Origin: Candidatus Dormiibacterota bacterium
GTDB taxonomy: Bacteria; Chloroflexota; Dormibacteria; Aeolococcales; Aeolococcaceae
NCBI GenBank assembly: GCA_963709585.1
Contig: CAVPXI010000014.1
Coordinates: forward strand, 224,001 to 288,000
Length of the DNA stretch: 64,000 nt
Direction: 5' to 3'
The notes beneath the pieces are model-generated. The model worked only from the letters and a program-made list of their open reading frames with translations, did not search any database and had not been told where the DNA came from. The number at the start of each line of letters is the position of its first letter. Positions within the stretch are counted from its first letter, which is position 1. Of this stretch, positions 29,258 to 33,744 are shown one piece after another. A program made the position numbers and the translations under genes.

Positions 29258-30631
29258 TCACCCGGGCGCGGCGAGGGCTCCCGCAGGCGCCTGACGGTCG
29301 GCGAGGGACATGCCGCCGAGGTCGGAGAGCACGTTGACGACATTGCCCACCACGAGCGTCGAGGGTGGCTCGAGGCGAGCCGCACGCGCCGCCGCGGCGA
29401 TGCTTCCGATCGGAGCGCGCACCACCTGCTGCTCCGCTGTGGTCGCCTGGGACACGATCGCCGCGGGCCGGTCGGGACCGAGCACCGCCGAGAGGCGTCC
29501 GGCGATGGCGTCGAGCTCGGCCGGCATCAGAACGACCAGGGTGTCGACGCTCTTCGCAAGTTCGTCGAACGCAGCCAGATCGCCACCCGCGCGGTGACCG
29601 GTCACGAAGGCGACCGACGCTGCGACGCCCCGATGGGTCACCGGTATCCCGGCCGACGCCGGAGCCGCAAGCGCCGCGCTCACACCGGGAATCACCCGAA
29701 CCGGGACTCCGGCACGTTGCAACGCCAGGACCTCCTCGCCACCCCGGCCGAAGAGGAACGGGTCGCCGCCTTTCAGGCGCACCACCAGGTCCCCGGCGCG
29801 AGCGGCGGCGATCATCGCGTCGTTGATGCCGGCCTGCGCCGCCGACCGGCGGCCCGAGCGTTTGCCGGCATCGACGAGGCGTGCGCGGGGGCCGCAGAGC
29901 CGCAGGACCTCGGGACCGATCAGCGCATCGTGAAACACGACGTCGGCGTCGGCGAGAACAGCCCGGGTACCCATGGTCAGCAGGTCCGGATCCCCTGGTC
30001 CCGCTCCGGCGAGGACGACCTCGCCCATCGGCACCCCGCGGTCGGTGGCGTGCGCGCTCTGCTCGATCGTCAGTGCCAGGGCGGCGGCGGCGTCCTGGCT
30101 GCCCTCATGAAGCATTCCGAGCGCCCGGGATCGGAGCAGCCGCCGGTAGGCGCGCTGCTGGGCATCGCCCGAAACCCCGGCCCGGCGCAGCCGGCGTCGC
30201 ATCCGCCCCGTCAATGTCGTGAAGGGCCCCCACTCCGCGCCGAGCATCGACTCGATGCGCTCCCGCAACGCGCGCGCAAGAAATGGGCTCTCGCCGGAGG
30301 TGGAGATCGCAACCTGGAGCGGACCGCGCCGCACGAGCGCGGGAGCGATCCAGTCGCACTGCGGGGTGACGTCGACGACGTTGAGGAGCACGCGCTCGCG
30401 GTCCGCCTCGGCGCGTGCGGCCCGCTGGCCGTCCGGATCGTCGCTCGCGTCGATCGCGAGGTACGCACCCACCAGGTCACCGGGCTGAAACCCGCGCCGG
30501 AGGTGGATGGCGCTTGCGCCGCTGGCGCGAAGGCCTGCGGCTTTCTCCTCGGCGAGCGGGGTGTTGCCGAGCACGACGCAGCGCCGCTCGTGGAGATCCA
30601 GGACGACCGGGTAGTAGGCGGCCGCTTTCAT
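29258..30631 (-). CDS. cysG: Siroheme synthase (dehydrogenase/chelatase + uroporphyrinogen-III C-methyltransferase)
   Basis: YPVVLDL, AISTSGESP, GAGPGDPDLLT, RLKGGDPFLFGRGGEE. Confidence 0.92.
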   Translation of the reverse strand: MKAAAYYPVVLDLHERRCVVLGNTPLAEEKAAGLRASGASAIHLRRGFQPGDLVGAYLAIDASDDPDGQRAARAEADRERVLLNVVDVTPQCDWIAPALVRRGPLQVAISTSGESPFLARALRERIESMLGAEWGPFTTLTGRMRRRLRRAGVSGDAQQRAYRRLLRSRALGMLHEGSQDAAAALALTIEQSAHATDRGVPMGEVVLAGAGPGDPDLLTMGTRAVLADADVVFHDALIGPEVLRLCGPRARLVDAGKRSGRRSAAQAGINDAMIAAARAGDLVVRLKGGDPFLFGRGGEEVLALQRAGVPVRVIPGVSAALAAPASAGIPVTHRGVAASVAFVTGHRAGGDLAAFDELAKSVDTLVVLMPAELDAIAGRLSAVLGPDRPAAIVSQATTAEQQVVRAPIGSIAAAARAARLEPPSTLVVGNVVNVLSDLGGMSLADRQAPAGALAAPG

Positions 30632-31372
30632 CACACGGCACCTTGCCGTGCGGGCACCTCCGCCGGCTCTGGAGCGCCCGCCACCTCGATCGGCGGATGC
30701 AGCAGGCACTCCTTGTGGGCATCGCTCTCCCACCACCAGCGGCCGGCGCGTTCCTGCTCCCCGGGTTGGGTCGCCCGGGTGCACGGAGCGCAGCCGATCG
30801 ACATGTAGCCGCGGTCGTACAGCGGATGATGAGGGATGCCGTGGTCGCGGAGGTAATCCCATACCTGCTCTCGAACTCCAGGACGCGAGCGGCACCACCT
30901 TGGTCATGCCCTCGTGCCCGGGATCGCTGGCGACCACCGGGGTCGCCGCGCGCGTCGGGGTCTGATCTCGGCGGAGTCCGGTGATCCACGCGTCGTACTC
31001 CTGCAGCGCCCGCGCCAGCGGGTTCACCTTGCGCACCGCGCAGCACTGGTTGCGCAACGCCACCGACTTGCGGAACGGCATGTCGCCGTGCTCCGAGGTC
31101 ATCGCCTCCAGCTCGTTTGATTCCGGGGCGAGGATGCGCAGGCGTATCGGGAACTGCTCGCGCACATATTCGATGTAGTCGTGCGTCTCTTCGTGCAGGC
31201 GCCCGGTGTCGAGCGTGAGCACCTCGGGCGCGGGGACGATCTTGCAGGCGAGATCGATCAGGACCATCAACTCGGCCTGGAAGCTGGCGACCAGCGCGAC
31301 GCGACCGAATCTCCGGTACGTCCACGCGAGGATGTCCTCGGCGGTCGCGTTCTGCAGGTCGGTTGCGTTCAC
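30631..31372 (-). CDS. cysH: APS/PAPS reductase, 4Fe-4S type (frameshift at ~30875)
   Basis: LDTG, CCAVRKVNPL, WITGLRRDQ; after removing one base: PLYDRGYMSIGCAPCT...RAGRWWWE...KEC, with TGA overlapping the cysG ATG. Confidence 0.9.
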
Positions 31373-33081
31373 GCAGGCACCTCCACCAACGCGTGACGTT
31401 CGGCAAGCTGGGCGACGCCCTGGCGCCGGCACCAGTCGCCGAACCCCTCGCCGGGGAGCTGGGTGCGGGCGTACTCGAACAGCGGACCACGCAGTAGGTG
31501 TGGGATCTCCTCGAGCTTGACGTTGCGCATGTAGAGCTCGTTGAGGCGCGTGCCCTCGACGTCACCGCCGAGGAACATGTCGTATTTCCCAAGCGTCGTC
31601 CCGACGAACCCCACGTCGCCGAGATACGGCCTCGTGCAGCCGTTGGGGCAGCCGGTCATGCGGTAGCTGATGCGTTGATCCTCAACTCCTGCCTCGCGCT
31701 GGACCAGCGCGATCTCCCGGATCAGGCTCGGCATCGCCCGTTCCGACTCGGCGACCGCAAGCCCGCAGGTCGGGTATGCCGGGCACGCCATCGAATGCCG
31801 GATCGCGCTCGGCAGCGATTCCGACCGCGCCACCTCCCAGCGATCAAGGATGGTCGTGAACACCTTGCGGCCTGAATCGGTGAGATTGGTGATCAGGATG
31901 TTCTGCTGTGGCGTCAAGCGCAGCTCGGGCCGCAGCGTCTCGACGACCTCGCGCAACGCGGATCGCAGCCCGTCGTGGATGCGTCCGTTCTCGACGAAGA
32001 GTCCGTAGCAGTGCGTGCCGTTCTCCTGCTCGCGCCATCCGAGGTGATCGTCCGCCGTCCTCCAGTGCAGCGGGCGCGACGGCTCGAGCGCGAACGTGAG
32101 CCTGGACGCCACCTCGGCGCGAAACCAGTCGATACCGCGATCCGCGATCAGGTACTTGAGCCGCGCATGACGCCGATCGGTGCGATCACCGTAGTCTCGC
32201 TGCACCGCGACCACCGCACGAGCAGCCTCGACAACATGCTCCGGTCGCACGTACGCGAGCGGCCGCGCCACCGCCGGCCAGGTGTTCGGCTTGTTCGCGG
32301 TGCGGCCGAGGCCGCCACCGGCGAGCAGATCGAATCCGGTGAGGTCGCCGTCGTCGTTTGCGTGGGCAACCAACCCGAGATCGTTGGCGTAGATGTCGAC
32401 GCAGTTGTCGCCCTCGACCGCGATCGCGGTCTTGAATTTGCGCGGCAGGTACCGCTCGCCGTAGAGCGTGTCCGGTGGATCCGGTTGATTCGACGCGGCG
32501 AGCTCGCCGTCGAGCCAGATCTCACAGTACGCACGCGTGGTCGGGGTGAGTCCGCTCACGAGTGCCGCCAGCGCGCGGTTGATCTCGCTGTGCAGACGAT
32601 CGCTCCACGGCGCCGGGCAGGACATGATGTTCCGCTCCTGGTCGCCGCATCCGCCCAGCGTGGTGAGCAGCGACTCGTTGATGGCGCGGATCGCGCGCTT
32701 GAGGTCGCCCTTGAGCACCCCGTGCAGCTGCAGGTCCTGACGGGTGGTGATCCGCAGCGTGCCGTTTCCCCACGCGCCGGCGATGTCGTCGTGTGCGAGA
32801 TAGGCGTCGGGGCTGACGATGCCGCCCGGGATTCGCGTGCGGATCATCGTCATGTGGTGCTTGTCGAGGCCGAGCTTCCGCGCCTCCTTGCGCAGGTCAC
32901 GATCGTCCTGCTGATACACGCCGTGGAACTTGAGGATGACTTCCGCGTCGTCGCTGAAGACCGCCGTGTCCTCGAGCAACTCCTCGCCGAGGCTGCCGCG
33001 AAGACGGTTGCTCCGGGCCTTGACCTGCTCGGCGCCCGACATGCGCTCGAGCTCGGTGGTGCAGCCGCACGCATCGCACAT
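31369..33081 (-). CDS. sir: Assimilatory sulfite reductase hemoprotein (Sir/CysI type)
   Basis: KFHGVYQQDDRD, TTRQ, LPRKFK, ACPAYPTCGLA, TGCPNGC; GGGAG before ATG 33081. Confidence 0.93.
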   Translation of the reverse strand: MCDACGCTTELERMSGAEQVKARSNRLRGSLGEELLEDTAVFSDDAEVILKFHGVYQQDDRDLRKEARKLGLDKHHMTMIRTRIPGGIVSPDAYLAHDDIAGAWGNGTLRITTRQDLQLHGVLKGDLKRAIRAINESLLTTLGGCGDQERNIMSCPAPWSDRLHSEINRALAALVSGLTPTTRAYCEIWLDGELAASNQPDPPDTLYGERYLPRKFKTAIAVEGDNCVDIYANDLGLVAHANDDGDLTGFDLLAGGGLGRTANKPNTWPAVARPLAYVRPEHVVEAARAVVAVQRDYGDRTDRRHARLKYLIADRGIDWFRAEVASRLTFALEPSRPLHWRTADDHLGWREQENGTHCYGLFVENGRIHDGLRSALREVVETLRPELRLTPQQNILITNLTDSGRKVFTTILDRWEVARSESLPSAIRHSMACPAYPTCGLAVAESERAMPSLIREIALVQREAGVEDQRISYRMTGCPNGCTRPYLGDVGFVGTTLGKYDMFLGGDVEGTRLNELYMRNVKLEEIPHLLRGPLFEYARTQLPGEGFGDWCRRQGVAQLAERHALVEVPA

Positions 33082-33262
33082 GATCAGACCGACTCCCGGT
33101 CTGCATGCGGTCGGAAAGGGCTTGGTGTTCCGGGCATTTGCGTTGTGTTGTGACCTGTGCTCGCACGCGCGGCTGTCGCGCGCGAATGGGTTTGCACTGT
33201 TCTGGCGCGGCACGCCGGCCGCGATGTGTCGGCGAGGCACCGGAGGTGCCTCAGCGCGAGTA

Positions 33263-33352
33263 CTAGCCGCTACAGTGGGCGATGCCCGAACGGATACGTC
33301 CCCAGTCGAGCCAGAACCGCCGGGTGAGTGTAGGGAGATCCGCGCCGTTCAT
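33263..33352 (-). CDS. Putative Cys-sensing leader peptide MNGADLPTLTRRFWLDWGRIRSGIAHCSG
   Basis: 29-aa ORF 10 nt after the -10 box, upstream of sir, followed by hairpin 33234-33252. Confidence 0.65.
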   Translation of the reverse strand: MNGADLPTLTRRFWLDWGRIRSGIAHCSG

Positions 33353-33362
33353 CTGGCTGCAC

Positions 33363-33392
33363 ATCCTACGGAATCCCCACTCGTCTAGTCAA
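33363..33392 (-). promoter_or_regulatory. Sigma70-type promoter of the sir-cysH-cysG operon
   Basis: TTGACT-N18-TAGGAT. Confidence 0.7.
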
Positions 33393-33744
33393 CTTTCGTA
33401 TTCACGTTCGCGCCGTCGGTGACGAAATCGACCTCGGTGAAGAAGCACGTGCGCTCGCCCGTATGGCACGCGGGGCCGTCGGGATGAACGTTGAGCAGCA
33501 CCGCATCACCGTCACAGTCGATGCGAACCGCTCGCACGTGCATGATGTTCCCGCTGGTCTCGCCCTTCTCCCACAAGCGCTGCCGCGAGCGGCTGAAGAA
33601 CGTCGCGCGGCCGGTGCGAAGCGTCGCTTCCCACGCGTCGCGATTCATGTGCGCGACCATCAGCACCTCCGACGTCGTCGCATTCTGCACGACCGCCGTG
33701 ACCAGCCCGTCGTCGCCGAACCGCGGCCGGATGGGGTCGGTCAC
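33385..33744 (-). CDS. hisI: Phosphoribosyl-AMP cyclohydrolase
   Basis: [29 protein letters not shown]. Confidence 0.95.

Follow-up and report, generated by a model that had tools for sequence, protein, structure and literature searches.

The DNA analysed here, a window of 64,000 nucleotides (nt) that comprises positions 224,001 to 288,000 of contig CAVPXI010000014.1 (assembly GCA_963709585.1), belongs to Candidatus Dormibacterota, a lineage of uncultured soil bacteria known only from metagenomes. On its minus strand, which carries all the features described below (coordinates are those of the window), a sulfite reductase gene (sir) is preceded by a short open reading frame (ORF), termed sORF1, that we propose to be a cysteine- or sulfur-responsive leader ORF. 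sORF1 (33263..33352) consists of 29 codons and a TAG stop codon (33265-33263) and encodes the peptide MNGADLPTLTRRFWLDWGRIRSGIAHCSG, in which the cysteine at codon 27, a near-invariant UGU (33272..33274), lies three codons ahead of the stop. Its ATG, at 33352, is found 10 nt after the -10 box of a promoter (33363..33392) that is composed of TTGACT (33392-33387), an 18-nt spacer with GGGATTCCG (33377-33369) at its end, and TAGGAT (33368-33363), and no Shine-Dalgarno sequence (SD) precedes it. At all loci with a related sORF the distance from the end of the -10 hexamer to the ATG is 10-11 nt and, as judged from the sequence, no SD is present at any of them. Because an SD is missing and the ATG follows the -10 box so closely, the sORF1 mRNA is probably leaderless or nearly so.

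Beyond the sORF1 stop codon, the segment TCGCGCT (33253..33259) is complementary to sORF1 codons 3-5 (33346-33340), a candidate helix that we call P0. It is followed by a perfect 8-bp hairpin, HP1 (GAGGCACC-TCC-GGTGCCTC, 33234..33252), by the linker GCCGACACATC and hairpin HP2 (CGCGGC…GCCGCG; together 33206..33233), and by hairpin HP3 (33163..33183). A second small ORF, uORF2 (33084..33137), starts with the ATG at 33137, spans 17 codons (MPGTPSPFRPHADRESV) and ends with a TGA (33086-33084) that lies 2 nt ahead of the sir ATG at 33081; both the sir SD (GGGAG, 33097-33093) and the hairpin that encloses it (CAGACCG-GGAGT-CGGTCTG, 33103-33085) are inside uORF2. A preliminary description of this DNA had reported the promoter pair, the 29-residue ORF, the 8-bp hairpin, a C/A-rich stretch and the SD hairpin, all of which we located on the minus strand, and had noted that no U-tailed terminator is present, which also held: we found no terminator-like site on the minus strand and no U tract after any of the hairpins. 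To this we add three features, namely the coupling of uORF2 to the start of sir, a paralogous copy of the sORF before a rhodanese gene and a bias for UGU at the distal cysteine codon.

Within 32900-33600 nothing but the promoter pair gives a sigma-70-like match, against 0.1 matches expected from shuffled sequences, and the hisI stop codon (33387-33385) falls within it. Immediately 5' of the -35 box, and overlapping the final codons of hisI, is an A-rich element (GAATACGAAAG, 33393..33403) that is kept in sir-type leaders and may be an UP-like element; GAAA(C/G)TTGACT, which is similar to this element together with the -35 box, is also present in the paralogous promoters. The promoter motif is kept across loci and genera, and the combination of TTGACT with a following GGGATTCC-N-TA-NNN-T occurs at only two sites in the whole window genome, each with an sORF downstream. 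We also observed that GGGATTCC[GA], a near-palindrome (GGA-T-TCC), occupies the 3' half of the spacer between the promoter boxes in all copies of the module (33369-33377 in the window; near 119190 of G000:C8), and that in the window genome it occurs only together with an sORF. It is a possible candidate for the operator of some regulator.

The leader is conserved to an extent that exceeds chance, since 23 of 24 genomes from the same genus carry its 361-nt region at 77-87% identity and since a profile of the peptide found matches at E<=1 in 41/41 genomes of the genus, with 38 reaching E<=1e-6. Some of the genome counts in this work (this profile search, the 401-genome phylum sample, the sister-family search and the 61-genome rho search) include unpublished genomes that are absent from the alignments (G027, G032, G036, G044, G045, G054, G100, G151, G152, G570, G615 and G663). 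From related genomes we assembled a set of 70 distinct DNA versions of the sORF, which encode 49 distinct peptides; two loci with N runs (L019, L047) were excluded from the alignments, and one locus (L016, genome G013) was left out of the counts because it is probably rearranged or an artefact of assembly. The pattern T-R-R-x-W-x-D-x-G-R is kept in all 70 versions, and T10, R11, R12, W14, D16, G18 and C27 are invariant in the alignment of the window family (A2). Over eleven core codons, departures from the commonest codon are synonymous in 204 cases and non-synonymous in 52, with 38 of the latter at position 13 alone, and the core arginine positions make use of both CGN and AGR codons. This excess of synonymous changes and the use of both arginine codon families show that selection acts on the sORF1 peptide and not on the RNA alone.

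The length of 29 residues is unchanged in 18/18 intact sORFs from the first 20 loci examined. An in-frame ATG at 33364 was considered as an alternative start and rejected because in three relatives (L013, L017, L020) indels between the two ATGs leave only the one corresponding to 33352 in frame. At the locus that was excluded from the counts (L016 / L021, on G013:C153), a 1-nt insertion ahead of the sORF stop joins the sORF to a 394-codon frame that contains a CysG-like methyltransferase. From about 275 nt onwards the leader is divergent, and sir and cysH appear to be absent from the locus; this state could reflect either a deletion or a misassembly.

A distal cysteine follows the core in 69 of the 70 distinct sORFs, and in 57 of those 69 it is followed by exactly two residues. 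The sole sORF without it (L101, DATDID010000050.1) ends in …GVPNGS, with GGT replacing TGT, and retains a cysteine at codon 3. The distal codon is TGT in 70 of 75 occurrences, as compared with 20% TGT among the cysteine codons of long ORFs genome-wide, while the cysteine codons at other positions of the sORFs are TGC in 39/40 cases. One tRNA-Cys was found in the genome, and since its anticodon is GCA, UGU is read by wobble. The sORF stop codon is TAG in 51 of 70 versions, as against 425 of the 1827 long ORFs of the genome. We stress that the sORF sequences are mutually related, so that these codon and stop counts overstate the number of independent events. Sister-family sORFs, described below, display the same preference, with TGT 18 times in 18 sORFs, and in those 3' ends that were inspected TGT is the last cysteine codon; some relatives' sORFs carry CC or C-x-x-C-x-C.

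The module is associated with sulfur genes, as the preliminary description had proposed and as its suggested motif check upstream of sulfur genes in relatives bore out: family members are found there and the ORF is conserved. A second copy of the sORF in the window genome (MQGTPRLTRRRWLDWGRCRSDRASCPASA, on contig C8) lies ahead of a gene for a two-domain rhodanese, and elsewhere in the family, in other genera, the module is followed by sir, cysH/PAPS reductase, rhodanese, 1-Cys peroxiredoxin or beta-carbonic-anhydrase-like genes. The last are small genes of the beta-carbonic-anhydrase family that follow the sORF at L063, L064, L137, L139 and L140 and, by N-terminal sequence, also at L147, L161 and L175. 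Some enzymes of this family hydrolyse carbonyl sulfide (COS) or CS2 to H2S, and the leader-linked genes might therefore encode sulfur-scavenging COS hydrolases and not carbonic anhydrases.

A search for the core pattern in 185,579 species, each represented by one genome, yielded 61 loci, 59 of which are labelled Candidatus Dormibacterota or Dormibacteria. Two typical family members (L107 and L108) are on contigs labelled Candidatus Saccharimonadales and Candidatus Acidiferrales, the second of which was placed in the Dormibacterial family; both contigs are probably mislabelled or misbinned. Among 401 genomes sampled across the enclosing phylum, convincing matches were confined to the window's own family, and three weak matches in other families were judged to be inside long ORFs, although one of these matches (L140) proved to be a real sORF similar to NF042934. 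A profile search of 1.84 billion representative proteins returned eight matches, five of them family members and three repeat proteins; where the sORF protein records are named at all, the name is 'hypothetical protein'.

We then asked how this ORF relates to known leader peptides. Neither the 29- nor the 33-residue form of the window peptide matched any Pfam or NCBIfam family at E<=10, and a six-frame search of the window genome with NF042934 gave no match at its sORFs; ten further family members were likewise without a match. However, sister families within the same class contain ORFs of 28-29 codons, such as MRSPAIASLAPLTRRRAIDYVRCASCFCS, …LTRRLAVDLGRCASAICTG and …LTRRRAIDYVRCASCFCS, that have a -10-like hexamer just upstream and precede sir-like and beta-carbonic-anhydrase-like genes, and all 18 of those that we aligned (alignment A5) match both NF042934 ('cis_reg_atten, putative leader peptide', best E 3.1e-6) and NF042933 ('Ms5788A family Cys-rich leader peptide', best E 1e-5), in each case below the curated cut-off. 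One match alone exceeded the NF042934 cut-off; it comes from an unpublished genome (G663), and our argument does not depend on it. A profile-profile comparison of the window family (A2) with these ORFs (A5) by hhalign gave a probability of 95.1% and an E-value of 3.2e-8 over 27 columns, and intermediate forms such as LTRRLWLDHGRCGTAIC show continuity between the two Dormibacterial groups. From these observations, the sORF1 family is most likely a divergent Dormibacterial branch of the Ms5788A / NF042934 leaderless cysteine-responsive leader ORFs. The resemblance to actinobacterial leaders suggested in the preliminary description is thus borne out by way of the sister families, while the leader-peptide model search that it recommended gave a divided answer, missing the window peptide and finding its sister-family counterparts. 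Literature searches for Dormibacterota returned no description of such leaders, in agreement with its statement that none was known from this lineage. A known riboswitch is ruled out as an explanation because Rfam has no match in the leader region: within the window only four tRNAs match at the gathering score, and nothing matches in 32900-33600 at E<=10.

The reference point for this class is Ms5788A, a 90-nt leaderless sORF upstream of the cysA2 (rhodanese) operon of Mycobacterium smegmatis which, according to those parts of the study by Canestrari et al. (bioRxiv 10.1101/834739) on which we draw here, is a cysteine-responsive translational attenuator, as demonstrated by start, nonsense, frameshift and compensatory mutants, with a cysteine tract that pairs with the next SD. 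In one sister family (f4, L148-L174), whose leaders end in …RCASCFCS, we observed that the UGC GCC codons are complementary to a GGCGCA that immediately follows the SD (GGAG) of the TTG-started gene downstream; this would amount to a pairing of cysteine codons with the SD region like that of Ms5788A, and without a relay uORF.

The arrangement at the 3' end of the sir leader is different. The uORF2 ATG is invariant and its 17-codon peptide is poorly conserved, and in 29 of 30 leaders from the genus uORF2 stops at a distance of 5 nt from the sir start, on one side or the other (-5 or +5), despite indels that include one deletion of 35 nt; in the remaining leader, uORF2 and sir share a reading frame. 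A TGT at sir codon 2 is found in each of the six leaders with the +5 frame, where it supplies the TGA of uORF2, and in 2 of the 23 others. Analogous uORFs that end at -5 or inside the sir SD are present in three leaders from other genera (including L056 and L059). Because the uORF2 stop abuts the sir start and this juxtaposition is kept through indels, we interpret its placement as a signature of translational coupling, by termination and reinitiation, between uORF2 and sir. An in-frame extension of sir from a GTG at 33240, which would give a protein of 623 residues, was set aside because many of the indels in the leader are not multiples of three.

The sir (cysI) gene itself (31369..33081; NF010029, 695 bits) encodes a sulfite reductase hemoprotein with the N-terminus MCDACGC. 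The pattern MC-x-x-CGC, which places three cysteine codons among the first seven (33061-33081), is kept in 33 distinct leaders from several genera (including L056, L057 and L059), and could either serve to bind a metal or cluster at the N-terminus or render the translation of sir itself responsive to the cysteine supply. The downstream ORF (29258..31432), apparently a fusion of cysH and cysG, has a PAPS/APS reductase domain (residues 23-188) and, after it, siroheme synthase CysG domains (residues 308-703); as listed, its start overlaps the 3' end of sir, and its true start probably lies downstream of 31432.

The helices of the leader are unequally conserved. HP3 is the best supported, with 92.7% of cells paired and compensatory changes at three pairs. 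P0 has 95.7% of cells paired and one compensatory pair, and its duplex energy is no better than that of shuffled sequence (mean z -0.1, 68 leaders); HP1 has 88% of cells paired and one pair changed on both sides, and the figure for HP2 is 81%. Conservation is lowest in the SD hairpin, where 63% of cells are paired and compensatory changes are absent. The post-stop motif GCTGAGGC recurs in other genera ahead of rhodanese and peroxiredoxin genes, and the order of a hairpin, CCGACAT and a GCGGC…GCCGC hairpin is common to sir and rhodanese leaders. We also found complementarity between codons 22-24 of sORF1 (UCGGGCAU) and the start of uORF2 (AUGCCCGG), for which the duplex energy amounts to -14 to -19 kcal/mol in about 20 of the 30 leaders; a leader from another genus (L057) has an analogous complementarity, though not the same one. 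An all-pairs scan brought out no conserved alternative helix that could be an antiterminator.

Taken with the conservation of the peptide, its sulfur-gene neighbours and its codon bias, these results lead us to consider it likely that sORF1 is a cis-acting leader that responds to cysteine or sulfur; that the signal is cysteine we infer from homology and genomic context. Towards a fuller model, in which the ribosome stalls at the single UGU and the output is translational, through uORF2 and without Rho, we lean only slightly. In this model, transcription would start a few nt ahead of the sORF1 ATG, near 33355-33352, and sORF1 would be translated such that the chain with T10, R11, R12, W14, D16, G18 and R19 is in the exit tunnel as the ribosome meets the wobble-decoded UGU. 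When Cys-tRNA is scarce, the ribosome would dwell at this codon, three codons ahead of the stop, and the paused ribosome would cover the 3' part of sORF1, which in most members of the genus is complementary to the uORF2 start. uORF2 would then be translated, and its ribosomes would melt the sir SD hairpin and terminate 2 nt ahead of the sir ATG; we therefore propose that translation of sir-cysH-cysG is coupled to that of uORF2.

Several observations weigh against this reading. We calculated constrained partition functions in which a ribosome footprint, its size taken from general knowledge, was masked at the cysteine codon or at the stop codon, and observed no change in the mean opening energies for the free, cysteine-stalled and stop-stalled states, be it at the uORF2 AUG (5.8, 5.2 and 5.6 kcal/mol; 30 leaders), at the sir SD (11.6, 12.1 and 11.5 kcal/mol; 30 leaders) or at the rhodanese SD (5.5, 5.9 and 6.0 kcal/mol; 27 leaders). 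Occlusion of the SD that is relieved by stalling, which the preliminary description had offered as one mode of control, is therefore not borne out: computed accessibility does not change consistently, and the hairpin in question is poorly conserved. The proposed structure as a whole does not rise above shuffle controls, and three compact rhodanese leaders (47-52 nt) are devoid of all the hairpins. The pairing between sORF1 and uORF2 displays no covariation beyond shuffles (65 of 500 shuffles scored as high) and is weak or absent in about 10 of the 30 leaders and in L056 and L059. As to the peptide, one sORF in 70 (L101) carries glycine at the distal cysteine position; the window sORF1 has a single cysteine codon (codon 27), against a mycobacterial criterion of at least two consecutive ones; the window peptide itself is without an NCBIfam match at E<=10; and the sister-family matches reach 24.7 bits against a cut-off of 27 for NF042934 and 22.6 bits against 45 for NF042933. 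Finally, an RNA library assembly contains one contig of 172 nt, which spans 32948-33119, and short pieces around 32418-32475, none of which covers sORF1.

Two alternatives would place the control at transcription termination. Attenuation of the tna type, in which a stalled ribosome hides a C-rich loading site for Rho, would suit the base composition, since the leaders have consistently more C than G (mean skew 0.11-0.13, never negative, and up to 0.48 in the compact leaders), and Rho has been proposed as the effector for cys leaders without terminators that were predicted in Actinobacteria, as set out in the relevant part of Seliverstov et al. (2005, PMC1262725). However, a search with the rho model TIGR00767 gave a best score of 47.8 bits, against a cut-off of 509, in the window genome and 60 other genomes of the family, so that 0/61 genomes are above the cut-off; 28 of those 60 are at least 90% complete, and the same search exceeded the cut-off in eight control genomes. 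Since rho was undetected in these 61 genomes, Rho-dependent attenuation of the sir leader, the other mode of control in the preliminary description, is very unlikely, and we find the tna-type scheme scarcely credible; the window's family (f1, 61 genomes) may lack Rho altogether. Of that description, the leader ORF, its link to sulfur genes and its likeness to actinobacterial leaders stand, and its two proposed modes of control are not supported. Alternatively, HP1 or HP3 could be a terminator or pause site without a U tract, the formation of which is set by the position of the ribosome on sORF1; HP1 starts 10-12 nt past the stop in sir-type and some other leaders, which corresponds to the leading edge of a terminating ribosome, and HP3 has compensatory changes. 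This we judge highly improbable, given that no U tract follows any hairpin, that the all-pairs scan revealed no conserved antiterminator helix and that the compact rhodanese leaders do without these hairpins; moreover, stalling of a ribosome at the cysteine codon would allow HP1 to form, and the polarity would then be wrong for induction.

Control might also be exerted mainly at the promoter, by a protein that binds GGGATTCC between the -35 and -10 boxes, with sORF1 encoding a trans-acting small protein or being a passive first cistron. In favour of this, the promoter element equals the peptide in conservation and accompanies it, and computed accessibility of the rhodanese SD is the same in all ribosome states; but every sulfur operon has its own sORF copy at the 5' end, as expected of a cis element, the 29-residue peptide, rich in arginine and tryptophan, matches no Pfam or NCBIfam protein family, and the homologous mycobacterial leader is reported to act in cis in the section of 10.1101/834739 that concerns it, so that we regard promoter control as improbable. 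Less so, but still rather unlikely, is that sORF1 encodes a metabolite-sensing arrest peptide, akin to TnaC with tryptophan and SpeFL with ornithine, in which the nascent chain and a ribosome-bound small sulfur metabolite (free cysteine, sulfide, O-acetylserine or similar) arrest elongation or termination near the C-terminus, the cysteine residue or codon being part of the arrest site and not a read-out of Cys-tRNA. Conservation of the non-cysteine core goes far beyond what a classical leader peptide needs and is shared with the sister families, the distances from core to cysteine and from cysteine to stop are nearly fixed, and the preference for TAG as the stop codon noted above would fit as well. 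The sir-type sequence W-L-D-W-G-R-I-R-[SA]-G resembles the SecM arrest motif, but its IR[SA]G part is not retained in the paralogs; the UGU bias fits slow decoding of the cysteine codon at least as well, and to our knowledge no arrest peptide senses a sulfur compound. For Ms5788A-type leaders, the role of the conserved non-cysteine residues is left open by the authors in the part of 10.1101/834739 that bears on it, which leaves room for such a function. Taking this idea one step further, T-R-R-x-W-x-D-x-G-R might be an arrest module common to the NF042934/Ms5788A leaders of two phyla that slows bond formation or release at UGU-x-x-stop, a proposal that we likewise hold to be doubtful. If it were true, either one cysteine codon or free cysteine or another sulfur metabolite would be signal enough, and sORF1 would be the first cysteine- or sulfur-responsive arrest peptide, operating without Rho and with its signal relayed to sir by a uORF.

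On the reading that we prefer, that of a cis-acting cysteine- or sulfur-responsive leader, a class of leader ORF that was experimentally characterised in Actinobacteria would extend to the uncultured soil lineage Dormibacterota, and a small sulfur regulon would be defined for organisms known only from metagenomes, comprising sir, cysH, rhodanese, peroxiredoxin and beta-carbonic-anhydrase-like genes. The reduction of the polycysteine tract to one cysteine with a rare codon, while the non-cysteine core has remained unchanged, sharpens the question of what the non-cysteine residues do, and with one cysteine codon, one conserved core and no Rho the Dormibacterial branch offers a natural test case. 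The sir leader would moreover be a two-step device, in which a sensor ORF is followed by a relay ORF that is coupled to the structural gene.

Compared with the trpL and hisL attenuators, sORF1 is likewise a leader ORF that contains codons for the end-product amino acid ahead of a biosynthetic operon, but it has no tandem regulatory codons, no U-tract terminator and no terminator/antiterminator pair. With the arrest peptides TnaC, SecM and SpeFL it shares a strongly conserved short nascent chain, set at a constant distance from the 3' end of its ORF, and an effect in cis, a likeness of possible action only: there is no sequence homology, arrest is hypothetical here, and TnaC and SpeFL use Rho, which is missing here. 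The candidate cys leaders of Mycobacterium, Propionibacterium acnes and Bifidobacterium longum, as presented in the relevant part of PMC1262725, are similar in being short ORFs with cysteine codons near the stop, cys genes downstream and no terminator hairpin, and differ in their runs of cysteine codons and the proposed role of Rho, in place of which we find a single cysteine and no detectable rho. The 19-position domain model NF042934 describes the pattern L-T-x-R-R-x-[IVL]-D-x-x-R-x-x-S-x-x-C, which is present in 18/18 sister-family ORFs and in L140, and a position before sulfur genes; the window branch is not scored by the model and is linked to it by profile-profile comparison only. The closest parallel is with the polycysteine leaderless sORFs of the Ms5788A type ('Cys ribulon', NF042933), which also have about 29 codons, no SD, a start near the promoter and no U-tailed terminator, form the first cistron of cysteine and sulfur operons including rhodanese (cysA2), occur in several copies per genome as a regulon, and contain the motif LTRR..[IVL]D..R, a likeness that is seen via the sister-family ORFs and not by direct alignment to Ms5788A. 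Whereas these actinobacterial leaders have a run of 2-9 cysteine codons and a duplex between the cysteine tract and the SD, which is not evident here, their counterpart in Dormibacterota has a single UGU, a Trp-rich core (WLDWGR) that the family model misses, and a relay uORF that is coupled to sir.

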